64,000 nt of DNA from contig OZ245817.1 of NCBI GenBank assembly GCA_965228475.1, forward strand, positions 2,784,001-2,848,000, written 5' to 3'. Source of the DNA: Myxococcota bacterium (lineage in GTDB: Bacteria > Myxococcota_A > UBA9160 > JAFDDA01). Both the position numbers and the translations under genes were made by a program. The notes beneath the pieces were generated by a model that saw only the letters and a list, made by a program, of their open reading frames with translations, did no database searches and was not told the origin of the DNA. This document shows, piece by piece, positions 35,581 to 52,948 of the stretch (position 1 is its first letter; each line of letters opens with the position of its first letter).

Positions 35581-36485
35581 ACGCCTTCACCGCATCCGGG
35601 GTCCGGGTGCGCCTGGGCCGCGTCCAGGCGCTCGACGGCGTCGACGTCACCCTCGCCGGCGGGCGGGTGACCATGCTCGCGGGCCCGAACGGCGCCGGGA
35701 AGACGACGCTCATGAAGGTCGTCCTCGGGCTCGTGCGAGCCGACGCGGCGTCCTTCGCCGTGGACGGCGCGCCGATCGCCATCGACAGGGCCTGGAAACG
35801 GCGGGTCGGCTACCTGCCCGAGGCCGTCGCCTTCTCGGACAACCTGAGCGGCCAGCAGGTGCTCGGCTTCTTCGCTCGCGCGCGCGGCGTCGCGGGCCAA
35901 CGCGTCGACGCGGTCCTCGAGCAGGTCGGGCTCGCCCACGCGCGCCGGCGTGCCGTGCGCGGCTACTCACGCGGCATGCGCCAGCGGCTCGGCCTCGGCG
36001 TCGCGATCCTCGCGAGCCCCGAGTTCCTGATCCTCGACGAACCGACCGCGGGCCTCGATCAGGAAGGCCTCTCGGTGCTCTGGGCCGTTCTCGACGAGTG
36101 GCGGGCCGCGGGGAGGCTGGTCTTCGTCTCGACCCACGACCTCGCACTCACCGAAGGCCGCGTCGACGAGATCTGCCTGCTGCGCGCGGGACGCGTCCTC
36201 CTCCAGGGGAGCGCGGAGCGTCTGCGCCGCGAAGCCGACCTGCCCCACCGCGTCTGGTTCGAACTCGACGCGGCCGAGGGGCGGCGCTTCGAGGAAGCCG
36301 TCGCGAGCTGGGGCCGGGGTGGCGTCGAGCGCGACGGGCATCAGCTACGCGTCGACGTCGCACCCGGCCACCTGCTCGAGCTGATGCGGATCCAGGGAGA
36401 GTTCCCGGAGGCGATCCGCAGCCTGCGGGTCGAGGAAGCCGCCTTCGACCGCGTCTACGAGACGCTCCTGGCGGCCGGATCGTGA
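35577..36485 (+). CDS. nosF: ABC transporter ATP-binding protein NosF (start uncertain: ATA 35577 or GTG 35607)
   Basis: Walker A GPNGAGKTT, GYLPE, YSRGMRQR, LILDEPT, STH; position in the nos operon. Confidence 0.92.
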   Translation: MDAFTASGVRVRLGRVQALDGVDVTLAGGRVTMLAGPNGAGKTTLMKVVLGLVRADAASFAVDGAPIAIDRAWKRRVGYLPEAVAFSDNLSGQQVLGFFARARGVAGQRVDAVLEQVGLAHARRRAVRGYSRGMRQRLGLGVAILASPEFLILDEPTAGLDQEGLSVLWAVLDEWRAAGRLVFVSTHDLALTEGRVDEICLLRAGRVLLQGSAERLRREADLPHRVWFELDAAEGRRFEEAVASWGRGGVERDGHQLRVDVAPGHLLELMRIQGEFPEAIRSLRVEEAAFDRVYETLLAAGS

Positions 36486-37276
36486 GCCGCGTCGGCTACG
36501 CCCTCGCCCGCCACGAACTCTCGGAGCGCATTCGGGACCGCTGGGTGCTCGTCGTGAGCGTGCTCTTCGCCCTGCTCGCCTCGGGCGTGAGCCTCTACGG
36601 CCGCGTCGCCGAGGCCGACCTCGACGCCATGACCGGCCCGAGCCTGGTCACGCTCTCGGCACTCCTGGTCCCGCTCGTCGCCATGGTGCTCAGCCACGAC
36701 GCGATCGTGGGAGAGCGGGACCGCAACACGCTCGGTCTCCTGCTCTCGCTCCCGGTGAGCCCGCTCGAAGTGGTCGCCGCCAAGTACGTCGGCCGAGCGC
36801 TCGCCCTCACCCTGGCCGTCGTCTTCGGCCTCGGGGCGGCCATGCTCGCCAGCGGTCCGGCGGGCGCGCGCACCCTCCTCGCCCTGGCGGGGCCGACCCT
36901 CCTGCTCGGCCTGGCCTTCCTCTCGCTCGGCCTGCTCATCTCGGCGTGCACGCGCCGCCAGGTCGCCGCCGCGAGCGCCGTGGTGGTGGTCTGGTTCCTC
37001 CTCGTCTTCTTCTACGACCTCGCCCTGCTCGGCGTGCTCGTCGTCTCCGACGGCGCCGTCTCCCAGCAGGCGGTTTCGTCGCTCGTCCTCGCCAACCCGG
37101 CCGGGCTCTTCCGGCTGCAGATGATGCACGCCTTCGCGGGGCCCGAGATGCTCCGCACCCTCGGCATGAGCGTCGCGATGCCGGAACCCGGAACCCTCTG
37201 GCTACTCTGGGCGGCATGGCTCGTGCTGCCCGTCGCGGTCAGCGGAATCCTCCTCACTCGAGCGAAGGTGACCTGA
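36482..37276 (+). CDS. nosY: ABC transporter permease NosY
   Basis: GTG overlapping the nosF TGA; LVPLVAM..SHDAIVGE...TL.LLLSLPVS, FFYDLALLG, NPAGLFR. Confidence 0.93.
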   Translation: MSRVGYALARHELSERIRDRWVLVVSVLFALLASGVSLYGRVAEADLDAMTGPSLVTLSALLVPLVAMVLSHDAIVGERDRNTLGLLLSLPVSPLEVVAAKYVGRALALTLAVVFGLGAAMLASGPAGARTLLALAGPTLLLGLAFLSLGLLISACTRRQVAAASAVVVVWFLLVFFYDLALLGVLVVSDGAVSQQAVSSLVLANPAGLFRLQMMHAFAGPEMLRTLGMSVAMPEPGTLWLLWAAWLVLPVAVSGILLTRAKVT

Positions 37277-37818
37277 TGCCCCGAACTCCGACTCGCCTGA
37301 CCCTTGCCATGACCGCGGCCGTCGCCGCGGCGCTGGCCGTCGCCTGCACCGCCGAGGACGCCTCGGAGCCCGCCGCGCCGCTCACGACCGTCGCCATCGA
37401 CGACCAGGCGGGCGCCGTCTGCGGCATGATCGTCCGGGATCAATCGGCCCCCCGGGCCCAGGTCGTGCACCGGGACGGCGAGCGCGCCTTCCTCTGCTCG
37501 ATCGGCGACCTGCTCGTCCACGTCCTGGCACCTTCCCCCCACGGCAAGGCGGAAGCGATCTGGGTCGAGGTGCTGACGCCCGAGCAGGATCCGGCCGAGA
37601 GCCACACGGGCCCCCACGAGTGGGTGCGGGCCGAGGACGCCGTCTACGTCGTCGGGATCGAGCGGCGCGGCATCATGGGCCCGCCGGTCCTGGTCTACCG
37701 GACGCGAGAAGACGCGGAGCGGGTCACCGCCGGGACGGCGGGCCGGGTTCTCGACTTCGAGGGCCTGAAAGGTTGGTGGCAGGAACGCGGGAGCGAAACG
37801 CCGGGCCACCAGCACTAG
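37276..37818 (+). CDS. nosL: Copper chaperone lipoprotein NosL
   Basis: Lipobox AVAC; VCGM, PRAQ, CSIGDL, AVYVVG....IMG. Confidence 0.9.
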   Translation: MPRTPTRLTLAMTAAVAAALAVACTAEDASEPAAPLTTVAIDDQAGAVCGMIVRDQSAPRAQVVHRDGERAFLCSIGDLLVHVLAPSPHGKAEAIWVEVLTPEQDPAESHTGPHEWVRAEDAVYVVGIERRGIMGPPVLVYRTREDAERVTAGTAGRVLDFEGLKGWWQERGSETPGHQH

Positions 37819-37844
37819 CCAAGAAGGACTGTACAGTCCCGCCC

Positions 37845-39065
37845 ATGTCGAAGACGGTCGTGGTGGGGGGCGGTGCGGCCGGGCTGATGGCGGCGATCTT
37901 CGCCGGGCGCGGCGGTGCATCGGTGACCGTGCTCGAGGGCGCACGCGCCTGCGGCCTCAAGATCCTCGTGAGCGGCGGCGGACGCTGCAACGTCCTCCCC
38001 ATCGAGTCCGATCTCGGCGACTTCTACACCTCGGGCTCGCGCAACGTGCTCGCCCGGCTCTTCCGCACCTGGGGCCTCGCGGAGGTGACCGCTTTCTTCG
38101 AGCGCGAGCTCGGCATCCCGCTCCTCCGTGAAGAGGCGACGGGCAAGCTCTTTCCCGAGAGCGGCTCGGCGCGCACCGTTCGCGACCGCCTCGTGGAAGA
38201 GGCGCGCGCGGCCGGCGCCACGATCCACGTCGGCCACCGCGTCACGGGGATCGAGCCCGTCGACGACGGCTTCGTGGTGCACGGGATGCGGGAAGGCCGC
38301 AGCGTCGACGTCGCGGCCGAGCGCATCATCCTCGCCTCGGGCGGCCAGTCGCTCCCCAAGAGCGGCTCGGACGGCGCGGGCTACGGGTTCGCTCGGCGGC
38401 TCGGCCACGAGCTCGTCGAGCGCTATCCGGCGCTCGTCCCCCTCCACTCCCCCGACCCGGAGCTGCGCGAACTCTCCGGGCTCTCCGTGCCCGTCCGCTG
38501 GACGGCGCTCCGGGGCCAGAAGGCGATCGAGACCCGCACGCGTGAGTTCCTGTTCACCCACCGCGGCTACTCGGGCCCGGCCATCCTGGACGCCAGCCAC
38601 TGGGTGACGCGCGAGGGCGCGGGCCTGCGCGTCGCCTGGGACGGCCTCGACGAAGAGGCCTGGCGCCGGCACTTCGAGGCCGAATCCCGCAAGCGGATCG
38701 ACGTGCTGACGAGCGAGCGCCTCCCCCGTCGGCTCGCCGAACTCCTGCTCGCGCGCGCCGACGTTCTCGGCAAGACCCGGGCCCGCAGCCTGAACCCGAA
38801 GCAGCTGCGCCGCCTGCTGCGACTGCTCTCCGCCTTCGAGCTCCCCGTCGAGGGAGACGGCGGCTACGCCAAGGCCGAGGTCACCGGCGGTGGCGTCGCG
38901 CTTGGCGAGGTGAACCCCTCCACGCTCGAAAGCCGCCGAACCCCGGGCCTCTACCTCTGCGGCGAGATCTTCGACACGATCGGCCGCATGGGCGGGTTCA
39001 ACTTCCTCTGGGCCTGGATCACCGGGCGGCTGGCCGGGGAGAGCGCGGCCCGCCGCGGCCCCTGA
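37845..39065 (+). CDS. HI0933/YhiN/BaiN-like flavoprotein
   Basis: VGGGAAGL, KILVSGGGRCN, GKLFP, LFTHRGYSGP, VTGGGV, GLYLCGE, GGFNF. Confidence 0.92.
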   Translation: MSKTVVVGGGAAGLMAAIFAGRGGASVTVLEGARACGLKILVSGGGRCNVLPIESDLGDFYTSGSRNVLARLFRTWGLAEVTAFFERELGIPLLREEATGKLFPESGSARTVRDRLVEEARAAGATIHVGHRVTGIEPVDDGFVVHGMREGRSVDVAAERIILASGGQSLPKSGSDGAGYGFARRLGHELVERYPALVPLHSPDPELRELSGLSVPVRWTALRGQKAIETRTREFLFTHRGYSGPAILDASHWVTREGAGLRVAWDGLDEEAWRRHFEAESRKRIDVLTSERLPRRLAELLLARADVLGKTRARSLNPKQLRRLLRLLSAFELPVEGDGGYAKAEVTGGGVALGEVNPSTLESRRTPGLYLCGEIFDTIGRMGGFNFLWAWITGRLAGESAARRGP

Positions 39066-39098
39066 AAAAGGAAGAGGCCCGCCGGAGCGGGCCTCTTC
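39064..39098 (-). terminator. Rho-independent terminator between convergent genes
   Basis: GAAGAGGCCCGC-cgga-GCGGGCCTCTTC (12-bp stem, 39071-39098); T-run follows on the minus strand. Confidence 0.85.
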
Positions 39099-39122
39099 GG
39101 AGTCGAACTCGATGCGTCGGCG

Positions 39123-40037
39123 TCAGCCTTCGCGCCGGTTTCCCGCGATGCCGAGGCCGAGCAGGCTCAGGGCCAGCAGGACCGCCGTGCCGGGCTCCGG
39201 AACGGTGATGCTGAGGCTGAAGAGGCCGTTGTAGCCCTCGCTACCCGTCGCGGTCTCGTCGGCCGTGAAGCCGCCGCCCGCCACGTTGTTGAAGCCGAAC
39301 ACGGCCGCGGCCTCGTCGCCGCCGTTGGCCGAGCTGCAGATGAAGCCCGAGCAGTCGGCGTTCGAGAACGCGTCCAGCGTGAAGCTGATGACCATGTTGA
39401 TCGTGTCGTCACCGACGCCCGCGATCTGGTTCAGGTTCGAGTCGCTGAACACGGAGCTGCACCCGCCCTGGCCGCACGAGGTGCTGGCCGCGGTCGAGAG
39501 TGAGTAGTCGTTCCCGTCGAAGATCACGTTGACGTCGGTCATGCCGGCGTTCGACGCGTTCTGGGTGCCGACCTCGACCGAGGTGTCGTCCACGATCTTG
39601 ACGAAGCCCGAGGCGTTCTGGTCGATGTCGAGCGTCCAGCTGTCCAGCGGGTTGTCCACGTCCACCGTGAAGGTGAGCGAGTAGTTCACGTGGAGAGCCT
39701 GGTACTCGTTCGTGAAGTCCGTCAGCGCATCCGAGGCCGCCGCCGCATCGAGCGTGAAGCTCGTGTTCAGCGTACCGGCGCCGGTGTCCGACACGGTGCC
39801 ACCGGTGGTGATCCCGGTGACGTTCAAGTCGTTGACCAGCGCGTTGTCGAAGCAGGCGCTGTTGCCGGGGTTGTACGCGACGAGCCCGCCGCTGTTGTCG
39901 CCGTTCGAATTCTGGCATTGACTGTTGTTGGTTGCGACGTAAGAGAACGTCGCGGCACTCGCCTGTCCGGCGAAGAGCCCGAAGGCCGCCAGCACCGCCA
40001 GGTGCCGCGCGCCCATCCCGTAGCTGCAGTTGCGCAT
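39123..40037 (-). CDS. PEP-CTERM sorting-domain surface protein
   Basis: Signal peptide ending ASA; Asn/Ser/Thr/Gly-rich body; C-terminus TVPEPGTAVLLALSLLGLGIAGNRREG; alternative ATG at 40016. Confidence 0.88.
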   Translation of the reverse strand: MRNCSYGMGARHLAVLAAFGLFAGQASAATFSYVATNNSQCQNSNGDNSGGLVAYNPGNSACFDNALVNDLNVTGITTGGTVSDTGAGTLNTSFTLDAAAASDALTDFTNEYQALHVNYSLTFTVDVDNPLDSWTLDIDQNASGFVKIVDDTSVEVGTQNASNAGMTDVNVIFDGNDYSLSTAASTSCGQGGCSSVFSDSNLNQIAGVGDDTINMVISFTLDAFSNADCSGFICSSANGGDEAAAVFGFNNVAGGGFTADETATGSEGYNGLFSLSITVPEPGTAVLLALSLLGLGIAGNRREG

Positions 40038-40155
40038 CTTCCGATGATCCCTTCCCGGCCCGGGGCGGCGGTGAAGCCGAAGCCCGGGCACGTGTCTCGT
40101 TGACATGGGAACGCCTGCAACCCGCAACAGGAGCCCCTTCCCGACCGCGGGCTAG

Positions 40156-40441: not shown

Positions 40442-43438
40442 ATGTCGCGCTCGCTACGCACCGGGCTCTCCCTTCTGCTCGTCGTTTCGGCCTTGCCGGG
40501 TGCGGGCTGCCAGCAGGAACCCGTCGACCCGGCCGCCGAACGAGCGGCGCTCGCATGGGAGCAGATGGTGGCGCGCGAGGAAGCCTTGCGCGCACTCGGC
40601 CCGGCGCTCCGCGACCTCGGCCGCTCCGTGATGAACCTTCGCCTCCCCGACCCGAGCGCACGAGCGCGCTTCGGCGTGGTAGCGGTGACGGACGATCTCG
40701 CCGTGCCCACCGCCGCGGGCGCGCCTTCGGGCGTCGCCCGGACGCGAGCCCTCACGGTCCAGCCGATGGGGGAGCCCGCCGCCCCCTCTGGCATCTCGCT
40801 CTGGGACGATCTCTTCGCACGATTCGCCTTCTTCGAACACGCGTCCTTCCAGGCCGAGGCGGGTGATTTCGAAGATGCGGAGCGAACGCGGCTCACCGCG
40901 GCGGTCCGCTTCCGCGCAGCGGGCCGACTCGAAGGAGGATCGCGCGCCGCCCTGCGCGGCCAACTCGAACTCGGCTTCGAGCGAGTCGGCGACCACCCGC
41001 CGGACGACCCGGAGGCTTGGCGCATCGCGTCCTGGCGCACCCTCGGCTTCGAGTTCCAGGAGAGCGCCGGCGCGATGTTCCGAGAGGTCCTCGACGCCGC
41101 CCTGCCCGACCCCGAGGCGCTCCGACGGGCGCGCGAATCCAAGCACGCGCGGCTGGCCGCTGCCCGCCTGGCCGATCCGGACGGCTTCGAGCCGCCGCAC
41201 GCCCATTTCTTCGTGGGCTCCCAGGACCGTCACCCCGGCGTCTCGGTCGTGGACGTGAACGCCGACGGGCTCGACGACGTCTACGTGATGGCCCGCTTCG
41301 GACCGAACCAGCTCTTCGTGAATCGCGGCGACGGCACCTTCACCGAGCAGGCCGCGGCCTACGGCCTCGACGTGGAGGACCACACCGCCGCGGCGCTCTT
41401 CGCCGACTTCGACAACGACGGCGATCCGGACGTCTTCCTCGGCCGGACGCTGGCGCCGAGCCTGTATCTCGAGAACCGGGAAGGTCGCTTCGTCGACACG
41501 TCGAGCGCAGTCCTCGGGGGAGCCGCGCTCCCGGCCCTCGTGAGCTCCCTCGCCGCCGCCGACGTGGACGGCGATGGCCTGCTCGACCTCTACGTCTCGA
41601 CCTACGCGGCGCAGATGCTCGTGGCCGAGGCCGTCGCCAAGGATCGTTCGCGCCGCGAGCTCGGGACGGCACCCGCCACGAGCCTCCTCGAGGCCTTCCT
41701 TCCGCGCCCCGACGCGGAGCGCCTCATGGCGGCCACCCGCGAGGCAGGAGCTCACGAGTACATGTCGCTTCCCGGACCCCCGAACCTGCTCCTCCGCAAC
41801 GCCGGAGGCGGACGCTTCGAAACGAGTCCGGCGGGCGTCGAGCGCGCCTTCCGCAACACCTTCCAGGCCACCTTCGCCGACGTCGACGCCGACGGCGACC
41901 CGGACCTCTACCTCGCCCACGACTTCTCCCCGAACCAGATGCTGCGCAACGAGGGCGCGGGCCGTTTCGCCGACGTGACGGAGCCCACGGGCACCGCCGA
42001 CGTCGGCTTCGGCATGGGCGCCGCCTTCGGCGACTACGACCGTGACGGGCGCGAGGACCTCTACGTCTCGAACATGTTCAGCAAGGCCGGAAAGCGGATC
42101 ACGACGAGCTTCGACGGGGCCGACCCCCGGCTCGCGAAGATGGCCCGCGGCAACACCCTCTTCCGCAACGCCGGTGAGCTTGCCGGCGAGCGCTTCGAAG
42201 TCGTGTCGGGCACCGAGCCGCCGGCCCTCGCCGTCGAGGAGGCCGCCTGGGCCTGGGGCGGGCAGTTCCTCGACGCCGACAACGACGGCTTCCTCGACGT
42301 CTTCGCGCTCTCGGGCTACTACACCGCGCCCACCGACGTCGAATCCTTCGTGGACATCTGAAGCGACTGGTGGCGCGCGGTCGTGCGCACGGATCCGGCG
42401 CTGGAGTTTCCCGACGCCTTCGCCTTCGAGGGCGTGAATCTTCCCGGCCGCCACTTCACGGACGGCGTCTCCCAGAGCGGCCGGGAGCGGAACCACTTCT
42501 TCCTGAGCCGCGAAGCGGCGCGCTTCGACGACGTCTCCGGACTTTCCGGACTCGACCACCCCGCCGACGGCCGCGCCTTCGCCGTACTCGACTTCGACCG
42601 CGACGGCTTCCCGGACCTCGCCGTGGTGAACGCCAACGAGCCGTTCTTCCAGCTCTTCCGCAACGAGCTCGGCGATGCCGGCGGACGCTTCCTGGTCGTC
42701 ACCCTCGAGGGCGCCAACCGCACCGCCGCAGCGCGCCCCGGGTCGAGCCCGCGTGACGGCGCCGGGGCCCGCGTCGAAGTCCGCGTCGGTGAGACGCGGC
42801 TCCTTCGCGAGTTCCGGCTCGGCGAAGGCTTCGCCGCCCAGAACCATGGACGCCTGCTCTTCGGCCTCGGCGAAGCGGACCGCGCCGAGGCGGTCGAAGT
42901 GGTCTGGCCGTCCGGGGAGCGCCAGCAGCTCACCGCGGTCGAAGCCGGCACCCGTGTGCATTTCCGCCAGGACGCCGACCCCGAACGGCTCGCGTGGACG
43001 CCGACCCCGCCGCCGGCCGCAGCGCCCCGCGACGGCGGCGCCCGGCTCCTCGCGAACCTCCCGGACCCGAGCGGCCGCCCGCTCCGGGTCCTCACCACCC
43101 AGGCCAACTGGTGCGAAGCCTGCGTCGCCGAGCTGCCGCACGTCGCCCTCCTCCGGGACGCCTTCCAGGACGCGAGCTGGTGGGGCATCCCCGTGGAACC
43201 CGCGGACGACCGGGCCGCGCTCGAACGCTGGCGTGCCGAGCACCGCCCGGCCTACGAACTCCTCGTCGACCTTCCGCTCGCTGCACGCGCGGCCGCCTCG
43301 GCGCACGTGAAGCGCGCCCTCGGCCGGGAGGCCCTGCCCGCCACGATCGTGACGGATGCGGAGGGCCGGGTGCTCCGGACCCGCTTCGGGCCGCCGACGA
43401 TCTCCGAGCTTCGCGCCCTGCACGCGAGCCTCCCCTAG
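40442..43438 (+). CDS. Secreted FG-GAP/CRTAC1-like + ASPIC/UnbV + thioredoxin-like (CxxC) lipoprotein with in-frame TGA at codon 640 (candidate selenocysteine)
   Basis: ORFs 40442-42361 and 42383-43438 are in one frame separated only by TGA 42359-42361 (FVDI*SDWWRAVV); DxDxDG repeats on both sides; UnbV-like DGAGARVEV..GEGFAAQN..LLFGLG..VVWPSG; C-terminal WCEAC...LPATIV; N-terminal GAGC lipobox-like site. Confidence 0.75.
42362..42402 (+). promoter_or_regulatory. Putative bacterial SECIS element
   Basis: UGA-AGCG-a-CUGG-ug-GCGCGC-GGUC-GUGCGC-acggau-CCGG-CGCU; GGUC loop 17 nt after UGA. Confidence 0.65.
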
Positions 43439-43448
43439 GATCCCCCAC

Positions 43449-44249
43449 GTGAGACGAAGACTCGCGAGCCCGGCCCTGCTCTGCGCACTCCTCTTGGCCG
43501 TGAGCGGCTGTGGGCCCGAGCGCCGCTTCGAGGCCGCGCGGCGCGGAGCCGTCGAGTACTTCGCGCGAGAGGTCCGGACGGTCGACCCGGGCTGGGCCAA
43601 CCTGTTCGGCTACCTCCATCGGCGCTTCGGCCTCGAGCTCGTGAACGCGGCCGGCGCCGCGCTCCACGAAGTCCCGATGGAGCAGGAGCGCCCGGAGCTC
43701 GCGGCCATCTTCCGGCGCCTCGTCGATCCGGGCGCCCGCGTCCCGAAACGGACGATCGCCGAGCTCTCGACGCCGATCGACCGGATGACGGCGAGCGCCT
43801 TGCATTGCGATCGCATCCGCCTGCCCGAGAACTGGAACGACGTGCTCCGCGAGGCGACGCGCATCGGCGGGTACGCCCTCACCCACGCCGCGCTCGCGAG
43901 CCAATGGACCCTCGAGCAGGGCTGCCGGCCGGAGATCGAGGTCGCCGTCCTGCAGGAGCGTCAGATCGAGGCGCTCGGCGCGCTCGTGGACGGACGCGAC
44001 ACCCTCACCGTCGGGAACGCGACCGACCTGTGGATCGAGGCGCTCGTGATGCTCTACTACCTGGGCGCGGCGGACCGCATCGACCCCGCGTGGCTCGAGG
44101 CGCTGCTCGATGCCCAGCGCCCCGACGGCGGCTGGCCGCTCGGGCCCGGCGCGAAGCGCTCGGACCCGCATCCGACGGCCCTCGCCCTCTGGGTCCTGCT
44201 CGAGAACCTCGAGCCCGACGCGGCCCCCATCCGCTGGATCGCGCGCTAG
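43449..44249 (+). CDS. Lipoprotein of unknown function, alpha-helical with a prenyltransferase/squalene-cyclase-like repeat
   Basis: GTG 43449; lipobox VSGC; YALTH, LLDAQRPDGGW, HPTALA. Confidence 0.65.
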   Translation: MRRRLASPALLCALLLAVSGCGPERRFEAARRGAVEYFAREVRTVDPGWANLFGYLHRRFGLELVNAAGAALHEVPMEQERPELAAIFRRLVDPGARVPKRTIAELSTPIDRMTASALHCDRIRLPENWNDVLREATRIGGYALTHAALASQWTLEQGCRPEIEVAVLQERQIEALGALVDGRDTLTVGNATDLWIEALVMLYYLGAADRIDPAWLEALLDAQRPDGGWPLGPGAKRSDPHPTALALWVLLENLEPDAAPIRWIAR

Positions 44250-44263
44250 GGCTGGATCCCGCG

Positions 44264-45406
44264 CTAGGGCCGGGCGTCGATCAGGGCGCGGAGCTCCGCA
44301 AGCTCCTCGGCATCCCCGGGCGGAAGCGACTCCTCCGCACTCTCGAAGCTCGCCAGCAGCTCGCGCTCGAGCAGGGCGAAGGCATCGCGCGCCAGGGGTT
44401 CGCCCGGCGCCATGCGGATGGAGGTCTCGAGCAGGAACGGAGCGGAGGTGACCCAGTAGTTGCGTCCGATCCACGCCTCGGTGAGTCCGAGCAGGTAGTA
44501 GGCCTCCGCCGTCTCCGCGGAGGGGCCGGGGTCCGCCTCGACGAAGCGCTCCAGCACACTCGAAGCGGCCACGTAGTGAGCGACGGATCGATGGCTGTCC
44601 GGGACCGTGGCGAGGCCGCGCGCCTCTTCGACGAGGGCCCGGGCCACGGCGAGCCGCGGCGGCCCCGCCGTACGCGCGCGCAGCTCCGGAAGCGCCGCGA
44701 TCCACGCTTCGACGTCGCGGCGAAGGGCCGACCAGAGATCGGGCCGGCGGGCGAATCGTTCGAGCACGGGAACCGGGCGATCGAAGTCCTGCTGGATCCG
44801 GACCGAAACCACGAGCAGATCGGTCAGGGCCCCGAGCAGCATCGCCGGATGATCGGGCGAAGCCAGCTGGGCCTCGATCGTGGCCAGCGCGTCGTCGAAA
44901 CGCCGCGTCGCCAGCTGAAGGGCCGCACGCTGGTCGGGAGGCAAGGCGGCCAGCCCTTCGACGTCGAGGAAGCCCTTCGCGAGCGGCCGATCGGCCGTAT
45001 CGGGGAGCCGCGAATGGCACACGATGCAGCTCTCCGTGATGCGACGGACGAGGAACGCAGCCCGATCGCGGCGGCCCGCTTCGTAGGCCTGGGCGACCCG
45101 TGCGGTGTCGTAGGCGATCGACCGCGCGAGGAAGCCGCCCTGGGCATCCCCCTCGACGTGATCCACGAGCCGGTCGGTGCTGGTCGACAGCCGAGCCAGC
45201 GCCGCCTCGAACTCGGCGGCCTTCGCGGGGTCCTCGAAGGGCTCCGGTTCGGCACTCGCCGGCAACAAGACCTGGATCGCCCGGTAGATCTCCCCCATCA
45301 GCGCCCGCGTCTCGGTATCGCCGCCGGGCGTGGTCTCGTCACTGCCGCACGCGACCACGCACAGCGCCGCCAACACCGCCGCCGCCCGGAACCCCCTTCG
45401 CACCAT
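44264..45406 (-). CDS. Monoheme c-type cytochrome lipoprotein with TPR-like helices
   Basis: Lipobox VVAC; single CIVCH; AEAYYLLG TPR-like segment. Confidence 0.75.
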   Translation of the reverse strand: MVRRGFRAAAVLAALCVVACGSDETTPGGDTETRALMGEIYRAIQVLLPASAEPEPFEDPAKAAEFEAALARLSTSTDRLVDHVEGDAQGGFLARSIAYDTARVAQAYEAGRRDRAAFLVRRITESCIVCHSRLPDTADRPLAKGFLDVEGLAALPPDQRAALQLATRRFDDALATIEAQLASPDHPAMLLGALTDLLVVSVRIQQDFDRPVPVLERFARRPDLWSALRRDVEAWIAALPELRARTAGPPRLAVARALVEEARGLATVPDSHRSVAHYVAASSVLERFVEADPGPSAETAEAYYLLGLTEAWIGRNYWVTSAPFLLETSIRMAPGEPLARDAFALLERELLASFESAEESLPPGDAEELAELRALIDARP

Positions 45407-45539
45407 GGAACACCCCCTGTTCGCTCGAGCCTTTCAGTGAAACCTCCGACACCCAACGCCGATTGCAACCCTTCGGGCCGCATCGACCCCGGGAAACCGC
45501 CGGCTAGGCTGAGGGGACGCCCGGCCCGGAGAGGAGACG

Positions 45540-47093
45540 ATGCAGCTCGACCCCGCCCGCGAAGTTCGCCTCGTCCTCGGGGATCAGCTCGATGCCCGGC
45601 ACGAGTGGTTCGCCGAGGCCGACCCGGGCGTCCTCTACCTGATCATGGAAATGCGCCAGGAGACGGACTACGCGCGGCACCACGTGCAGAAGGTCCTCGC
45701 ATTCTTCCTCGCCATGCGGGCGTTCGCGGACGAGCGCCGCGCCGACGGGCACCGGGTGCACTACCTCGCGCTCGACGACCCGGCCAACACGCACTCGCTC
45801 GCGGAGAACCTCGAAGCCGTCCTCGAGGCCTGCGGAGCCCGCCACTTCGCCTACCAGGAACCGGACTCCTGGCGCGTCGACCGGCAGCTCGCCGCCTTCA
45901 CCGAGACACTCGAAGGCGTCGAGTCCCGCAGGGTCGAGGACGCCCACTTCCTGACTCGCCGCCACGAAGCCGCCGAACACTTCCGCGGCAAGAAGACGTG
46001 GGTGATGGAGAGCTTCTACCGCGCGATGCGGAAGAAGCACGCCATCCTGATCGAGTCCGACGATGCGCCGGCCGGGGGCAAGTGGAACTTCGACGCCTCG
46101 AACCGCAAGCGGCTTCCGAAGGGCCTGGCACCCCCTCCGCCCCGGGTCTTCGACCGGGACGTCGGCGACCTGCTCTCGATGCTCGACCGCTGCGGCGTCG
46201 AGACCCTCGGCCGGGTCGAGCCGGATCGTTTCGGATGGCCCGTCACCCGCGAGGAAGGCCTCGAGACCCTGCGCTACTTCGTCGACACGCTGCTGCCCCA
46301 CTTCGGCGACTACCAGGACGCGATGACCCCCGAGAGCTGGAGCCTCTTCCACTCCCGCCTCTCCTTCGTCCTGAACGCGAAGCTCATCTCGCCGCGGGAG
46401 GTCGTCGCGGCGGTCGAGGCGCGCTGGCGGTCCGACCCGGAGCACGCCGACATCGCCCAGGTCGAGGGTTTCGTGCGCCAGGTCCTCGGCTGGCGCGAGT
46501 ACATGCGGGGCCTCTACTGGGAGCACATGCCGGAGTTCGCCGAACGGAACTTCTTCGCTCACGACCGCCCCCTGCCGGGCTGGTACTGGACCGGCGAAAC
46601 CCGCATGGCCTGCCTGCGCCACGCCATCGGCCAGACCCTCGACCACGCCTACGCCCACCACATCCAGCGGCTCATGGTGACCGGGAACTTCGCGCTGCTC
46701 GTCGGCGTGGACCCGGACGCCGTCGACGCCTGGTACCTCGGCGTCTACGTCGACGCGCTCCACTGGGTCGAGGTCACCAACACCCGGGGCATGAGCCAGT
46801 TCGCCGACGGCGGCCTGGTCGGGACCAAGCCCTACGTGAGCAGCGCCAACTACCTGAAGAAGATGGGGCCCTATTGCACCGGCTGCGCCTACTCCGCCAG
46901 CGAGCGCGTGGGAGAAGGCGCCTGCCCGTTCAACAGCCTCTACTGGCACTTCCACCATCGCCACCGGGAGAAGCTCGAGGGCAACCCGCGGATCGGCATG
47001 GTCTACCGGACGTGGGACAAGATGTCGCGCGAACGGCGCGAGGCCCTGCTCTCGACGGCCGAGGCCCACCTCGAGAACCTCGAGCAGCTCTAG
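45540..47093 (+). CDS. FeS-type cryptochrome/(6-4) photolyase family protein (PhrB/CryB-like)
   Basis: LVLGDQL, HHVQK, MESFYR, GGKWNFD..NR, FGDYQDAM, QVLGWREY, HHIQRLM; four FeS Cys in MACL, YCTGC, ACPFN. Confidence 0.93.
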   Translation: MQLDPAREVRLVLGDQLDARHEWFAEADPGVLYLIMEMRQETDYARHHVQKVLAFFLAMRAFADERRADGHRVHYLALDDPANTHSLAENLEAVLEACGARHFAYQEPDSWRVDRQLAAFTETLEGVESRRVEDAHFLTRRHEAAEHFRGKKTWVMESFYRAMRKKHAILIESDDAPAGGKWNFDASNRKRLPKGLAPPPPRVFDRDVGDLLSMLDRCGVETLGRVEPDRFGWPVTREEGLETLRYFVDTLLPHFGDYQDAMTPESWSLFHSRLSFVLNAKLISPREVVAAVEARWRSDPEHADIAQVEGFVRQVLGWREYMRGLYWEHMPEFAERNFFAHDRPLPGWYWTGETRMACLRHAIGQTLDHAYAHHIQRLMVTGNFALLVGVDPDAVDAWYLGVYVDALHWVEVTNTRGMSQFADGGLVGTKPYVSSANYLKKMGPYCTGCAYSASERVGEGACPFNSLYWHFHHRHREKLEGNPRIGMVYRTWDKMSRERREALLSTAEAHLENLEQL

Positions 47094-47155
47094 GAAGGCG
47101 CGATCGAGGCGCTCGCGAGCCCGGGGACGGAGTAGAATCGGCCGACGGAGGGACC

Positions 47156-48550
47156 ATGGCCTTCTCCGAACGCCTCACCGCTCTCGACGCATCGTTCCTG
47201 GACATCGAGGACCCGGGCACCCACATGCACGTGGGCGCCGTGCTGCTGCTCGACGCCGCGCCGGTGCGCGACGCCGACGGGCACCTCGATGCCGGCCGCA
47301 TCACCCAGATGGTCGGCGCCCGCATCCACGACTTCCCGCGCTATCGCCAGCGGCTGGAGACCATCCCCGTCGAGGGCCACCCGGCCTGGGTGGACGATGC
47401 GGACTTCAACCTCGACTACCACGTCCGGCACACGGCCCTGCCCGCGCCCGGGGACATCCGCCAGCTCAAGCGCCTGGCCGGCCGCATCATGTCCCAGAAG
47501 CTCGACCGCGGAAAACCGCTGTGGGAGATGTGGCTCGTCGAGGGGCTCGAGGGCGACCGCTTCGCAGTGATCGCGAAGGTGCATCACTGCATGATCGACG
47601 GGGTTTCGGGCGTCGACCTGATCGCGGCCCTGCTGCGTCCGACGCCGGACGCGGAGGTCGAAACCGCTCCGCCCTGGGAGCCGCGGCCCGCGCCCTCGGG
47701 CGGCGCCCTGCTCTCCTACAGCGTCGCGCGGCGTGCGCTGGCCCCGCTGACCCTCGCCCGCAAGGCCGGAGACGCCGTCCGCTCCCCCCGCAGGACGATC
47801 GGCTCCCTGCGCGACGGCCTGGATGCGGTGACCGAGGTGATCGGCGCGGGCCTCACCGGGGCCTCGCCCACGTCACTCAATCCGGAGGCCATCGGGCCGC
47901 ACCGCCGCTTCGATTGGATCCGCTTCGAACTCGAAGCCATGCGCAAGCTCGCCCACTCGCGCGGAGGGACCCTGAACGATGCGGTCCTCGCCACCGTCGC
48001 CGGAGCCCTCCGCTCCTTCCTGCGCAATCGCGGCGACGACGTCGACGAGCTCGACTTCCGCGTGATGGTCCCGGTCAGCACCCGCGAGAAGGACGAGCGC
48101 GGAAAGCTCGGCAACCGCGTCTCGCAGATGATGGTGCCCCTGCCGGTGAACGCCTCGATGCCCCAGGACCGCCTCATGCGCATCCTCGAGGCCACGAGCG
48201 AGGCGAAGCGTTCGGGCCAGGCCTACGGCGCCGAGCTGATCGAGAACTTCAGCGATTGGATCATGCCGGGGCTCGTCACCCAGACCGTGCGGCTCCAGGC
48301 ACGCTCCCTGCCCTTCAACCTGGTGGTGACCAACGTGCCGGGGCCGCCGGTGCCGCTCTACCTGCTCGAAGCCCCGCTGCTCGAGATCTATCCCGTCGTG
48401 CCGCTCTTCAGCAACCAGGCGCTCGGGCTGGCGCTCTTCAGCTACAACGACGCCCTCTACTGGGGTCTCAACTCCGATTGGGACCGCGTGCCGGATCTCC
48501 ACGACTTCGTGGAGGCGCTGATCAGCTCCTGGCAGGAGCTCGAGAAGTAG
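47156..48550 (+). CDS. Wax ester synthase / diacylglycerol acyltransferase
   Basis: RLTALDASFL, MHVG, LDRGKPLWE, catalytic HHCMIDG, TLNDAVL, VTNVPGP. Confidence 0.95.
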   Translation: MAFSERLTALDASFLDIEDPGTHMHVGAVLLLDAAPVRDADGHLDAGRITQMVGARIHDFPRYRQRLETIPVEGHPAWVDDADFNLDYHVRHTALPAPGDIRQLKRLAGRIMSQKLDRGKPLWEMWLVEGLEGDRFAVIAKVHHCMIDGVSGVDLIAALLRPTPDAEVETAPPWEPRPAPSGGALLSYSVARRALAPLTLARKAGDAVRSPRRTIGSLRDGLDAVTEVIGAGLTGASPTSLNPEAIGPHRRFDWIRFELEAMRKLAHSRGGTLNDAVLATVAGALRSFLRNRGDDVDELDFRVMVPVSTREKDERGKLGNRVSQMMVPLPVNASMPQDRLMRILEATSEAKRSGQAYGAELIENFSDWIMPGLVTQTVRLQARSLPFNLVVTNVPGPPVPLYLLEAPLLEIYPVVPLFSNQALGLALFSYNDALYWGLNSDWDRVPDLHDFVEALISSWQELEK

Positions 48551-51500
48551 CTCCCGGGACGCCGCCCCGTCTCCGGCGGTTGCGCATCACCAGGATCAGA
48601 CTCAAGAGCGGCGCGACCTCTCCGCCGAGGCCGCAGTTCATCGGCCACTCGTTGTCGTCTTCGGGGCTCGCGCAGTCGGGGTCCTGGCCGAAGTCCACGA
48701 GACCGTCGAGGTCGTTGTCGACGCCGTCGGCGCACTGGGGCGGCGGGGGCGGTGTGAAGATCTCGGTGACGTGCAGGAGCGCGTCGAAGGCGATCCGCGC
48801 GCCGATGTGGCGCGAGACGATGTCGTCCTGGGGCGGATGGATGCCGCCCCAGATCCGCGAGAGGCTGGTCTGGTCGGAGGCGTCGTAGTACGTCGCATAC
48901 TGCAGCTTCAGCGGGACGCTCGGGCCGTCTTCGAAGACCAGGAAGGCATCCTTCGGCGCCTCGAACTCGCCGTAGCCACCGGGGAAGTACGGCGAGCCCG
49001 TGAGCGAGTCGAGCACCATGGCGGCGGCCCGGCTGTACGCGCTGTGGCCGGACGGGAACCCGGCGAAGGGCGGCGAGACGAAGCTCGGCCGCTGGTAGGG
49101 CCACCAGTCCTTCGCGAGGATCCAATCGACGCCGGCCACGTCCAACTCGGGGTCGACGATGAAGCCCGGGCCCCGCCAGGCGAGGATCGCGATCTCGTTC
49201 ACGTGCTCCGCGAGGTGCTCGTGCCGCTCGCCCGGAGCGCTGCTCGCCACCGTCACCAGCTCGATGAACCCCGGTCGGAGCTCGAAGCCTTCGGCGTCGT
49301 AGCGCGGGAGGCCGGGGTCGGAGCGCTGCCCGCGCTCGGCCATGGCGCGCAGAGCCGACACCGGCCGGACGTAGTCGTACCAGCCCTTCATGCCCCAGAC
49401 GGCCACGGCCACGTCGTGCATCGTGCCGCCGAGGGCGAGGTAGAGCTTCACGTCCCACTCGAGGTCGTCGAGCAGCGGGCCCCGGCCGCCGATCCGCTTC
49501 TCGGCCAGGTTGTCGCTCACGTAGTTCGCGATCGCGAACCAGTGGCCCGGCGGCGTCTCCGAATCCGGTCCGTCCGCCCAGAACTCCGCGAGGACCCGCG
49601 CGTAGTCGGCACGCGGAACCACCTGGGGCTCGTAGGGCAGCCCGGTCGCGGGGTTCATCGCGTGGCCGGTTCCCCAGTCCCACCCCTGCTCGAAGTCGTA
49701 GTACGTCCGCCACTCGTCCGGCTCCGGCAGCGGCGCGTTGCCGTTCGATGCCGGCGAGATGTCCCACATCACACCGTCGGCGGGGTCGAGGTGGCTGCTC
49801 CAGAGCGCGACCATCTCGAAACCGTCGAGGTAGTCCTCCGCGGTCGGGGTGCCGAGCAGCGGGGGCGGGCCCGGGTCGTGGTAGACCCAATAGTCGAACC
49901 CTCCGCGCGAGAAGACCGTCGCGTCCTCGGCGGCCAACGAGAACGGCACGACCTGACCCCACTCGGGGCTCAGGAAAGGCGGCGTACCGCCGGGGATCGG
50001 GTTCCCGCTCTGGTCGATGAAGAAGTCGAGCGCGAGAGGCTGCCAGAGGTTCGGGAACAGGATGCCCGGGTTGCCCGGAAGCGTCACGATGAGCGGCGGA
50101 TTCGACGGTTCGTAGTACTGGTTCGCGTAGCCGCCCTGCTCGTTCGATCCGTCCGCCAGGCCGAAGGCCAGCACGGCTTCGGCGATGCGGTTGCCGAGCT
50201 CCGCTGCGGGGTCGGCGCCGCCCGAGGTGGCGGTGTAGCTCGGGTCGTAGCCGAGCTGCGTCATGCGGGCGTCGAAGGAGATCTGGGAAAAGGATGCGCC
50301 CGGCGACGCGGCGAAACGTGCGGAGAGGATCCGGTAGGCCGCGTAGCTGATCGTGCGGGCGCGCGCGGCCGGGACGTCGGCGGCGACGGAGCGCTCTTCG
50401 TGAAGCACCTGGGCCGGGGTCGTTGCGTAGGCGGCCCAGGCGTCCCACATAGCGGCGGAGACGTGGAACAGGTTTCGCGCATGGACGGTCGGGCGCGCGA
50501 AGTCGCGGCGGATCGCGTTCAGGAGTTCCTCGTTCCACTGCCGGGCGACCGAGCGGTCGTCCTCGCAGGCATCGCCGATGCCGTCGAGATCCGCGTCCTC
50601 CTGGAGCGGGTTCGCCACCACGGGGCAGTTGTCCTCGGTGTTCGGCCAGCCGTCCCCGTCGGCGTCGTCCGGCTGGCAGACGTCCCCGATCCCGTCGACG
50701 TTCGCGTCCTCCTGGCCCGGGTTCCCGTGGCCTGGGCAGTTGTCGTCGGCGTCGTCGATGCCGTCGGCGTCGGCGTCGACTTCGAGGTAATCGGGCGTCC
50801 CGTCCCCGTCCGCGTCGTCGTCGGCCGGGTTGCCGTTGCCGTTCGCGTCTTCGTCGCGGGTCGGCACGCCGTCGCCATCGTCGTCGGCGTCGAGCGCGTC
50901 GATGGTTCCGTCGCCGTCGGAGTCCCGGGGCGAGGCGACGGAGCCGATCTCCTGTCCGTCCGACAGGCCGTCGCCATCGCTGTCGGCGGCCGCCGGATTC
51001 GTGCCGAGGACCGCTTCGTCGGCATCGCTCAGGCCATCCCCGTCGCCATCGGGCTGGCCCACGGGCGGCACGAGCACGATCTCCTGATTGACCGCGACCG
51101 TGCCGAAGATCGCGGTCCCGAGCCCGGGCCAGGTGGCGGTCAGCTGGTGGATCGGCCCGGGGTGGTCGCCGAGGCCGAAGTGGAGCGTCCGCTCGCTCTC
51201 GCCGAGGAAATGGCTCGAGGCGCCGACGTGCCGGACCTGGACCGGCCCGCCGGGGTCGGCCTGGAGCGTCACGACCGCGCCGATGCCGTCGGCGTTGAAG
51301 CCCGGGCCGCCCGCGATGCGCACGCGCAACCATTCGTTCCCGCCGTCTTCGTCGTTGCGATAGAGCACGCCCGTGGCCGCGTTGTTCGCCACGAACAGGT
51401 CGAGATCTCCGTCCCGGTCGTAGTCGAAGGTCAAGAGGCCCTTGCCCGAGCCGAGATCCGTGAGCCCCAGGCCGGCCGAGACCTCCGGCATCGCCCCGGG

Positions 51501-52808
51501 GCCGTCGTTGCGCCACATCCGCATCGGGTCGGGATCGAAACGGGCGTAGACGCTCCGTTGCGGCTCGGGGAGGATCGGGAACTCGACGCCGTTGGTCATC
51601 GCGAGGTCGAGGTCCGCGTCGTTGTCGAAGTCGAAGAACGCGGCGCCCCAACCCCAGTAGCCGTCGCGTACGCCCGCTTCGTCGGTGGCGTCCTCGAACA
51701 GCCGGCCCCCGAGGTTCCGGTAGAGCCGGTTCCCGGTGTAGCCCCAGTTGCACTGCTGACCGGGCTGATCGCAGGTCTCGTCCGGGTCGAAGATCGACGT
51801 CACGAACCAGTCGAGGTCGCCGTCCCCGTCGTAGTCCCCGAAGGTCGAGCCCATCCCGTTCTCGTCGGTGCCGACGCCGGCCGCCACGGTCCCGTCGCTG
51901 AAGGTTCCATCGCCGTCGTTCCAGAACAGGCGGCTCGTCCCGAAGTCCGCGGCGACGGCCAGGTCGAGCCAGCCGTCGCCATCGAGATCGACGAAGGCCG
52001 GGGCGAAGCCGAAGGTCTCGCAGGTCGACGCGGCCGCGCAGGCCGGGTCCGGGTCGATCCGCACGCCGGCGGCGTCCGTCACGTCCTCGAAGTGGCCGGG
52101 AGCCAGGACGCCCCGGTTGCGCAGCAGCCGGCCGTGGGGCTCCTCGAGCTCGTCGGTGGCCCAGTCCGTCGTGTAGAGGTCGACGAAGCCGTCGCGGTCG
52201 TAGTCTCCGACGGCGACGCTGAACCCGCCCCGGTTCTCGTCGGAGGCGACCGCCGCCCCGCGCACGACGGCCTCCTCGGTGAAGTGTCCGCTGCCGTCGT
52301 TGATGAACAGGTAGAAGCAGCTGTTGACCGGATCCGTGGCCAGTCCGACCACGAGCACGTACAGATCCGGGTCGCCGTCGTTGTCGACGTCGGCGAAGTT
52401 CGCGCCGTTCGATTGCAGGTCGAACCCCGAGAGCCCCGCCGTCGTGGTGAAGTCCTCGAAGGTCCCGTCGCCACGGTTGCGGAAGAGCAGGTCCGGAGCG
52501 TCGAGGCGGGTCACGTAGAGGTCCGGCCAGCCGTCGCCATCGACGTCGGCCGTGGCGGCGCCCCCGCTCAGGCGCTCGGTCTCGCAGCTGAAGGGGCTCG
52601 GAAAGGTCAGGCACTCCGATTCCGGGTTCGCCGGGTCGAACTGGACGTAGCCCCCGAGGCCGGCCGCGTCCGTGACGTCCGTGAACCCGGCCTGGGCGCT
52701 CGATGCCAGGAAGACGACGAGGGTCGCCGCAGCCCATGCGCGGACGAGTCGGCCCCCGGCCGAGCGGCACGGTCGGAGAGTCCCGGATCCAGCTACATCG
52801 CGTCCCAT
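48522..52808 (-). CDS. Large surface protein: FG-GAP/CRTAC1-like + ASPIC/UnbV + TSP3-like repeats + vanadium haloperoxidase/PAP2 domain + CGLGG tail (start uncertain, 52808-52883)
   Basis: Signal ending AQA; many DxDxDG repeats; LHFGLG; DNCP repeats; FWADGP..ETPPGHW, KGWYDYVRP, PPFAGFPSGHS, SRIWGGIH; tail NCGLGGEVAPLLSLILVMRNRRRR. Confidence 0.88.
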   Translation of the reverse strand: MGRDVAGSGTLRPCRSAGGRLVRAWAAATLVVFLASSAQAGFTDVTDAAGLGGYVQFDPANPESECLTFPSPFSCETERLSGGAATADVDGDGWPDLYVTRLDAPDLLFRNRGDGTFEDFTTTAGLSGFDLQSNGANFADVDNDGDPDLYVLVVGLATDPVNSCFYLFINDGSGHFTEEAVVRGAAVASDENRGGFSVAVGDYDRDGFVDLYTTDWATDELEEPHGRLLRNRGVLAPGHFEDVTDAAGVRIDPDPACAAASTCETFGFAPAFVDLDGDGWLDLAVAADFGTSRLFWNDGDGTFSDGTVAAGVGTDENGMGSTFGDYDGDGDLDWFVTSIFDPDETCDQPGQQCNWGYTGNRLYRNLGGRLFEDATDEAGVRDGYWGWGAAFFDFDNDADLDLAMTNGVEFPILPEPQRSVYARFDPDPMRMWRNDGPGAMPEVSAGLGLTDLGSGKGLLTFDYDRDGDLDLFVANNAATGVLYRNDEDGGNEWLRVRIAGGPGFNADGIGAVVTLQADPGGPVQVRHVGASSHFLGESERTLHFGLGDHPGPIHQLTATWPGLGTAIFGTVAVNQEIVLVPPVGQPDGDGDGLSDADEAVLGTNPAAADSDGDGLSDGQEIGSVASPRDSDGDGTIDALDADDDGDGVPTRDEDANGNGNPADDDADGDGTPDYLEVDADADGIDDADDNCPGHGNPGQEDANVDGIGDVCQPDDADGDGWPNTEDNCPVVANPLQEDADLDGIGDACEDDRSVARQWNEELLNAIRRDFARPTVHARNLFHVSAAMWDAWAAYATTPAQVLHEERSVAADVPAARARTISYAAYRILSARFAASPGASFSQISFDARMTQLGYDPSYTATSGGADPAAELGNRIAEAVLAFGLADGSNEQGGYANQYYEPSNPPLIVTLPGNPGILFPNLWQPLALDFFIDQSGNPIPGGTPPFLSPEWGQVVPFSLAAEDATVFSRGGFDYWVYHDPGPPPLLGTPTAEDYLDGFEMVALWSSHLDPADGVMWDISPASNGNAPLPEPDEWRTYYDFEQGWDWGTGHAMNPATGLPYEPQVVPRADYARVLAEFWADGPDSETPPGHWFAIANYVSDNLAEKRIGGRGPLLDDLEWDVKLYLALGGTMHDVAVAVWGMKGWYDYVRPVSALRAMAERGQRSDPGLPRYDAEGFELRPGFIELVTVASSAPGERHEHLAEHVNEIAILAWRGPGFIVDPELDVAGVDWILAKDWWPYQRPSFVSPPFAGFPSGHSAYSRAAAMVLDSLTGSPYFPGGYGEFEAPKDAFLVFEDGPSVPLKLQYATYYDASDQTSLSRIWGGIHPPQDDIVSRHIGARIAFDALLHVTEIFTPPPPPQCADGVDNDLDGLVDFGQDPDCASPEDDNEWPMNCGLGGEVAPLLSLILVMRNRRRRGGVPGATSRAPARS

Positions 52809-52948
52809 GCTCAGCCCCAGCGCTCCAGCTCCCATGCTACTCCAGCCTCGGACGCAACCGATGCGCAGAAGGATCGTCGGCAACCCGGGCCTACGGCTGC
52901 GGCGCGGAGAGCCTGCACGCGGCTCGATCCATCCGGTAGGATCCGCCC

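Follow-up and report, generated by a model that had tools for sequence, protein, structure and literature searches.

Does the stretch 40442-43438 of the DNA described here carry two genes that meet at a stop codon, or a single gene that is read through an in-frame UGA? The stretch lies in a window of 64,000 nucleotides (nt), the whole length of DNA analysed, from contig OZ245817.1 of a Myxococcota bacterium. Two open reading frames (ORFs), 40442-42361 (639 amino acids, aa) and 42383-43438, share one frame there and have the TGA at 42359-42361 as their sole separator. An earlier note on this DNA had singled out this arrangement as a candidate selenoprotein gene, and its account of the layout stands: ORF coordinates and read-through translation agree on a single frame interrupted by TGA only; the context that it quoted, SGYYTAPTDVESFVDI-U-SDWWRAVV (U denoting selenocysteine, Sec), is the sequence found around residue 640; Pfam domain placement puts the break between two FG-GAP repeats, as stated; and translation does yield a product of about 998 aa ending in a WCEAC domain. 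With TGA read as U, codon 640 is the only internal stop, the true stop being a TAG at codon 999. Long spurious ORFs are abundant in the window because its G+C content is 70.5%, and a 1048-aa antisense ORF overlaps the stretch in question.

The answer proposed here is that the window holds one gene, 40442-43438, rather than two; the explanation of which this is a part is, taken as a whole, highly probable. UGA codon 640 is very likely decoded as selenocysteine, which would make this a genuine selenoprotein gene. Behind the proposal stand a conserved UGA, coding on both sides of it, a covarying hairpin, Sec machinery in the genome and the domain make-up of the product, each of them observed directly. 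The features on which the argument turns are the following.

40442..43438, plus strand: whole predicted selenoprotein gene, 998 codons and a TAG stop, with a single internal UGA
42359..42361, plus strand: UGA codon 640, predicted to be read as selenocysteine; TGA at the homologous codon in 47/47 Sec-form loci
42362..42402, plus strand: hairpin resembling a selenocysteine insertion sequence (SECIS) within the coding sequence; core stem 42373-42378 with 42383-42388, apical loop GGUC at 42379-42382

An in-frame UGA conserved across four phyla

Homologs with a stop codon at the Sec site (Sec forms) were collected from three sources and amount to 47 loci, 20 from the window's phylum, 13 from species representatives and 14 from a verrucomicrobial order. 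For the phylum sample, 301 genomes were translated with stops passed through and matches were accepted at E 1e-50 or better. Twenty of these genomes, the window's included, gave matches at 21 places, 20 of which have an in-frame TGA; the lone match without it spans query residues 30-485 only and lies at a contig end. At all 20 loci the TGA occupies the homologous codon, within the motif D-x-U-[S/T]-x-x-W-R. The scan of species-representative genomes returned 79 loci. Thirteen have TGA at the site, two have Glu and one, a distant homolog (L109), has Cys; the rest lack the motif and are remoter FG-GAP/ASPIC proteins. The 13 TGA loci come from named metagenome-assembled genomes (MAGs) of Gemmatimonadetes, Planctomycetota (Pirellulaceae, Mariniblastus and others), Verrucomicrobiota (including Akkermansiaceae and Roseibacillus) and Acidobacteriota (including Pyrinomonadaceae and Vicinamibacteria). 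The verrucomicrobial-order sample (121 genomes) contains 20 places, 14 with a single TGA and six with the Glu form. Among 251 genomes of the phylum of genome G301, searched at E 1e-100, G301 itself was the only match.

At the Sec site the stop is thus TGA in every one of the 47 loci, never TAA or TAG. The earlier note had asked whether homologs keep TGA at codon 640 and conserve coding on either side of it; the 46 loci besides the window's, from Gemmatimonadota-like, Planctomycetota, Verrucomicrobiota and Acidobacteriota genomes, agree on both counts, the motif D-x-U-[S/T]-x-x-W-R being retained with coding kept on both sides of the UGA. As to a pairing of TGA with Cys among homologs, which it had also raised, Cys homologs exist (P0003 and L109) but are rare, Glu being the usual replacement. 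Separately, one Akkermansiaceae MAG (G302, the genome of locus L045) has 12 family places with one in-frame TGA each and two more matches without TGA; some genomes have seen heavy duplication of the family.

A protein database was also searched with residues 480-800, and the best 120 proteins were analysed. Fifty-nine of them span the site; 54 have Glu there, two have Ser, and Cys, Asp and Ala occur once each. The other 61 stop exactly one residue before U640 (C-termini ...D-x) and include the window's own fragment, P0002; genome annotation, in other words, splits these genes, and 61/120 of the closest database proteins are fragments. Such a split is what would be seen if the locus were two genes, a 639-aa propeller fragment ending at the TGA and a downstream part starting at GTG 42383, eight codons past the TGA. 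The rest of the evidence makes this very unlikely. A stop that is always TGA across 47 loci argues against it, and so does the S-x-x-W-R segment between TGA and GTG, which is conserved as protein and runs on unbroken in Glu, Cys and Ser forms. The repeat array would moreover be split between two FG-GAP repeats, and the downstream piece, judged by eye, has no signal peptide and no ribosome-binding site at GTG 42383, which lies inside the hairpin stem.

A stop within a reading frame would also result if the letters were in error, or if the gene had recently acquired a nonsense mutation or become a pseudogene. The chance of any of these is negligible: homologs keeping the TGA range down to about 27% identity across four phyla, and the downstream frame is intact, with S-x-x-W-R, an FG-GAP repeat, UnbV_ASPIC and the thioredoxin-like domain all conserved in frame after the UGA. 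As to the accuracy of the letters at 42359-42361, which the earlier note had wanted checked, the TGA is unchanged over 42100-42620 in contigs from three public runs (X1-X3) belonging to three studies. Two of these contigs are near-identical to the window and possibly its source; the third, a marine-metagenome contig in which four other letters differ, is independent.

The hairpin and the decoding machinery

The hairpin reported in the earlier note, GCGCGC-GGUC-GUGCGC with its loop 17 nt past the UGA, is present as described, and its lower stem extends to 42362-42402, a segment that folds at -21.1 kcal/mol. The alternative start GTG 42383, said to be buried in the stem, is indeed the first codon of the 3' arm. 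That the hairpin exceeds chance follows from comparison over the 47 loci and not from the single-sequence fold. In 42 of them a perfect stem of 6-9 base pairs (bp) begins +10 to +14 after the UGA, the commonest apical loops being GGUC (10), GGUCG (8), AGUUG (7) and CGUGUC (6). Among the remaining five, the window's locus and L022 still have the +12 stem (alignment A2) and L026 has it with a U-U mismatch; the best stems of L046 and L132 are at +16 and +23.

Covariation, which had been put forward as a way of checking the hairpin, was found in both of the sub-alignments that represent its two register groups. Pairing extends to 93.3% of the cells in A2 and 91.3% in A3, with covariation scores of 0.269 (shuffles 0.166) and 0.371 (shuffles 0.152), respectively. 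None of 500 shuffles reaches the score in either case, and slid controls collapse. Compensatory changes occur in both groups, one pair appearing as GU, AU, CG, UA and GC. The subgroup with the motif UxC has a different, shifted stem with a G-C to A-U exchange of its own. Mean minimum free energy is -11.46 in Sec forms (n=47) vs -8.16 in non-Sec forms (n=8), and 12 of the 47 Sec loci fall at or under 5% when synonymous codons are resampled.

Several observations weigh against giving the hairpin too much credit as a decoding signal. The window's copy, taken by itself, has a z of only -1.06, with 30/200 shuffles folding as well. The conserved protein motif W-R-x-V-V-R encodes a self-complementary stretch. 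The excess stability that remains after synonymous-codon resampling is moderate (mean z -1.21 in Sec vs -0.25 in non-Sec forms), and a 6-bp hairpin is kept in three of the six verrucomicrobial Glu forms. These three (L121, L122 and L123) have GCGCAC-CAUG-GUGCGC, or GCGUAC for the 5' arm in L123, at the SECIS position, and it is gone in L124; the Glu-form hairpin was either left over from a Sec ancestor or arises as a side effect of encoding the motif W-R-T-M-V-R. An Rfam E-value scan of 42200-42600 gave chance-level matches only and no matching family.

The genome from which the window derives has the machinery for selenocysteine insertion that the earlier note had named: SelA (460 bits), SelB (311 bits; cut-off 242), SelD (257 bits) and a tRNA-Sec with anticodon tca. 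No formate dehydrogenase of the TIGR01553 type scores over its cut-off in this genome, so the machinery must serve other clients, the selenoprotein gene included. SelA is above cut-off in 29 of the 31 genomes with a TGA form. Its background frequency in the phylum sample is 191/301, with all 19 TGA-form carriers among the 191, and it is found in five of the six genomes that have the Glu form only; because of the latter figure, SelA co-occurrence cannot separate Sec from Glu forms. The SelD match (G000:C1:3888689-3889582, outside the window) lies in an open frame of 746 aa, compared with a model of 311 positions, a length that suggests a fusion protein.

The UGA might be recoded to something other than Sec, either by read-through with a near-cognate tRNA or by reassignment to a sense codon. 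SelA falls under the cut-off in two of the 31 TGA-form genomes (G640 and G554), as this would allow, although both are MAGs. Each gene, however, has one TGA only, at a constant codon, and many of the same genes terminate at an ordinary TGA stop, which argues against reassignment. A SECIS-type hairpin conserved at the right spacing and a full set of Sec machinery in the genome point the same way, and recoding to another residue is therefore very improbable, if marginally less so than a pair of separate genes. In the reading preferred here, SelB and tRNA-Sec would decode UGA 640 as selenocysteine, directed by a stem-loop that begins 11-14 nt past the UGA and lies within the reading frame.

Domain make-up, putative resolving thiols and replacement of selenocysteine

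What might a selenocysteine do in such a protein? The read-through product is composed as follows.

40442..40510, plus strand: putative signal peptide with a lipobox-like end (MSRSLRTGLSLLLVVSALPGAG-C23), read by eye from the translation
40511..41203, plus strand: N-terminal domain of unknown fold, residues 24-254, conserved in the family
41204..42358, plus strand: FG-GAP beta-propeller repeats upstream of Sec, residues 255-639 (FG-GAP_3 145 bits, FG-GAP 78 bits)
42362..43060, plus strand: Sec-loop motif S-x-x-W-R, remaining FG-GAP repeat and UnbV_ASPIC domain (Pfam)
43061..43372, plus strand: TlpA/ResA-like thioredoxin-fold domain, with CxxC (C891-E-A-C894) at 43112-43123

Pfam finds FG-GAP_3 in five stretches of the read-through product, plus FG-GAP, UnbV_ASPIC (residues 773-839, nt 42758-42958, 62 bits) and AhpC-TSA; the last, at residues 874-977, scores 24.7 bits with the single sequence, under the 26-bit cut-off, and contains the WCEAC motif (residues 890-894). 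Residues 24-254 match neither Pfam nor NCBIfam; conserved columns in this part include E46, W193, F213 and S233. Judged by eye from its N-terminus, the product is probably exported and lipid-anchored. A crude regular-expression scan of the N-termini of 47 homologs gave 11 lipobox-like ends and 20 other hydrophobic stretches, counts that are only rough since the N-terminus of the window's protein escaped it; many homologs have more obvious lipoboxes (LIAGC and LLAGC, for instance). Among the 27 long-tail Sec-form rows of alignment A4, the columns conserved at 85% or more include M525, M545, S547, R552, W603, W605, U640, S641, W644, R645, S677, S679, E682, R711 and W-C891-x-x-C894, with no conserved His or further Cys in these rows. 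M525 and M545 are invariant in Sec forms. Residue 679 (42476-42478) is an invariant Ser in the 27 rows, N, Q or H in Glu forms and G in P0003; in these alignments it co-varies with the predicted Sec.

The earlier note had supposed that U640 is recycled by the fused CxxC domain. Comparison of the Sec forms fits this supposition. Thirty of the 47 have at least 300 residues after U; in 29 of these a CxxC lies 245-281 residues after U, and in none is there a Cys beside U. Fifteen complete Sec forms are short, ending after UnbV_ASPIC, and 13 of them have a vicinal Cys, either as CU (L027-L029) or as UxC (L042, L049 and eight verrucomicrobial loci). Contig ends truncate another two short forms. No Sec form has both a fused CxxC domain and a Cys beside Sec. 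A separate thioredoxin gene was sought beside the short forms, and off-frame noise was all that appeared. Glu forms with a thioredoxin-like tail number 41; the motif could be aligned in 33, only three of which keep CxxC. The alternation of CxxC with vicinal Cys and the loss of CxxC from Glu forms are what is predicted if Sec cycles through a selenenylsulfide with a resolving thiol.

We would therefore picture the protein along these lines. Sec, lying in the family-specific segment D-x-U-S-x-x-W-R between two FG-GAP repeats, would be a redox-active centre outside the cytoplasm and, once oxidised, would form a selenenylsulfide with a resolving thiol. In long forms this thiol would come from the fused CxxC domain, itself re-reduced by a membrane reductase of the DsbD/CcdA type; in short forms, which have no such domain, it would be the Cys next to Sec (CU or UxC). 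The window's own genome holds two DsbD_TM genes, whose products could feed the TlpA-like domain. For a redox-active, extracytoplasmic Sec served by a relay of resolving thiols the chances seem roughly even, judging from sequence comparisons.

Some of the evidence weighs against this scheme. Two short forms (L026 and L030) lack the CxxC domain and the vicinal Cys alike, and one long form (L025) has CxxxC in place of CxxC. The pattern, moreover, results from about four changes of each trait, so that the supposed recycling, while agreeing with the comparison, draws on few independent events: there are two independent pairs on well-supported branches and four on all branches, too few for an independent-pairs test, and the vicinal Cys never changed in the same direction. 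Lastly, the usual non-Sec residue is Glu and not Cys, which is atypical for thiol-type redox selenoproteins.

The history of the site was followed on a FastTree phylogeny of 74 rows, with the Sec site masked and four distant ASPIC proteins as root. All motif-bearing proteins fall in one clade (support 96), with Sec in every deep branch. Glu forms are nested within it three or four times (L047 with L052; P0061 beside L046; a large verrucomicrobial clade with P0063 beside L045), as are a Cys form with an Ala form (P0003 and P0023) and, twice, a Ser form (P0004 and P0059). P0003 reads IDL-C-SDFWR; the other Cys form, L109, sits on a long branch. The Sec label needs seven changes on this tree, five of them forced by well-supported branches. 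With Sec in all deep branches and non-Sec forms nested among them, Sec looks like the ancestral state, given up repeatedly and in most cases for Glu. The Glu codons seen at the site are GAA and GAG, so that passing from TGA to Glu needs two base changes.

So frequent a loss to Glu is unusual and keeps a rival in play: Sec may be inserted and yet act as an anionic ligand, an acid/base or a nucleophile, for instance towards a metal or a substrate, while the thioredoxin-like domain has some other job. Selenolate and carboxylate are both charged at neutral pH. The preponderance of Glu among the 59 site-spanning top matches, its origin at no fewer than three places in the tree in spite of the two base changes, and the invariance of M525 and M545 all speak for such a role. 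However, U640 has no conserved His or Cys partner other than the distant CxxC, and CxxC is lost in Glu forms. Nor would a role as metal ligand lead one to expect that most forms lacking the thioredoxin domain, and none of those with it, have a Cys directly beside Sec. A ligand or acid/base role is on balance unlikely, though far less so than the other alternatives considered above, and the resolving-thiol relay remains the preferred account.

Combining these strands, we tentatively suggest, at somewhat less than even chances, that the family represents a new class of extracytoplasmic selenoenzyme, with a catalytic Sec in a propeller and not in a thioredoxin fold or at a metal cofactor, a built-in relay that keeps it reduced (CxxC or vicinal Cys), and an ancestral Sec lost mostly to Glu along with the relay. 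As part of the same tentative suggestion, the family may be a main reason why Sec machinery is kept in genomes which, like the window's, lack the usual selenoprotein formate dehydrogenase.

The window contains a relative of the selenoprotein.

48522..52883, minus strand: FG-GAP/ASPIC paralogue, ORF of 1453 aa, with FG-GAP_3 (6 stretches), UnbV_ASPIC, TSP3 repeats and DUF6851

The earlier note had cited it as a related protein in which the equivalent repeats are uninterrupted. Both repeats, WGAAFFDFDNDADLD and KGLLTFDYDRDGDLD, are present and there is no in-frame stop, but the gene is on the minus strand, its ORF runs to 52883, and the linker between the repeats is shorter and has no Sec motif. 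The same protein has a weak match to the second helical bundle of vanadium chloroperoxidase. Between it and the selenoprotein gene lies a plus-strand ORF (43805-48550, 1581 aa) with WS/DGAT catalytic and C-terminal domains at residues 1124-1579 and no Pfam match in its first 1065 residues; it is probably over-extended in this 70% G+C DNA, or else represents two genes merged. The upstream neighbours (33604-40127) encode a NosD-like periplasmic copper-binding beta-helix protein, an ABC-2 permease, an HI0933-like flavoprotein and a PEP-CTERM protein.

Comparison with known systems

The earlier note had allowed that a protein of this kind might already be listed in computational surveys of selenoproteomes, and rightly so. 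Table S9 of Kim et al. 2016 (PLoS One 11:e0151883) contains four ASPIC/UnbV/FG-GAP selenoprotein candidates of identical domain description, each annotated as a pair of neighbouring genes that an in-frame UGA divides. For three of the four a SECIS was detected by bSECISearch, and Gly was given as the homologous residue in the closest match. From the domain description (the table has IMG identifiers only) and from the planctomycete members found among the Sec loci here (L042, L046, L049 and L059), we infer that these candidates belong to the same family; the window's gene comes from a different phylum. In that paper's main text the terms ASPIC, UnbV and FG-GAP do not occur, the candidates being listed only, and it offers no family analysis, covariation, thioredoxin domain or vicinal-Cys pattern.

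Other compilations were searched as well. The list of 119 families in a 2026 review of prokaryotic selenoproteomes names none with FG-GAP, ASPIC, UnbV, CRTAC1 or a propeller, and the terms FG-GAP, ASPIC, UnbV, CRTAC1 and propeller were not found in one supplementary file of BSepDB. None of nine named new families of deep-Sep is similar, and in its main text 'propeller', 'repeat' and 'CRTAC' have no occurrences. NCBIfam has no model for the family, the only match being ResA at 15.9 bits, and a direct search of the literature on FG-GAP, ASPIC, VCBS or bacterial CRTAC1 selenoproteins turned up nothing relevant. The family is thus widespread and barely documented, being in print as a bare candidate list only. 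Its absence from the 2026 list, the BSepDB file and NCBIfam implies that selenoproteomes are under-counted in soil and marine Gemmatimonadota, Planctomycetota, Verrucomicrobiota and Acidobacteriota. If the scheme proposed above is correct, Sec would occur in an extracytoplasmic repeat-propeller protein that has a reductase domain of its own, and the natural Sec, Glu, Cys and Ser variants would make a ready-made set for asking what selenium gives the enzyme.

The locus resembles E. coli genes of the fdhF type in that an in-frame UGA is followed by a stem-loop directly in the coding sequence and in that SelA, SelB, SelD and tRNA-Sec are all present. The apical loop of the fdhF SECIS is likewise GGUC, its G and U similarly spaced. 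The proteins differ: the window's is no molybdopterin enzyme, and its Sec would sit in a propeller-type repeat protein and not at a metal cofactor. With the CRTAC1/ASPIC-UnbV family it shares the FG-GAP propeller and the UnbV_ASPIC domain. A profile of the window's family matches human cartilage acidic protein 1, CRTAC1 (PDB 9etn, chain 9etn_A), at E 3.2e-35 over propeller blades and UnbV_ASPIC; the alignment skips the Sec segment, its blocks ending at profile position 392 and resuming at 673. CRTAC1 has neither the N-terminal domain nor the TlpA-like domain of the window's family and is not known to be a selenoprotein. To the TlpA/ResA/CcmG oxidoreductases the family is linked by its C-terminal domain, which carries WCxxC, the family profile matching chains of ResA and TlpA at E 9e-18 to 4e-17 and, with StoA counted in, at up to 5e-16. 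In the catalogued selenoprotein classes of TlpA/ResA fold, Sec lies inside the redox motif itself (UxxC, UGC). In the window's family, by contrast, the thioredoxin-like domain has two ordinary Cys, and the predicted Sec belongs to another domain, some 250 residues upstream.

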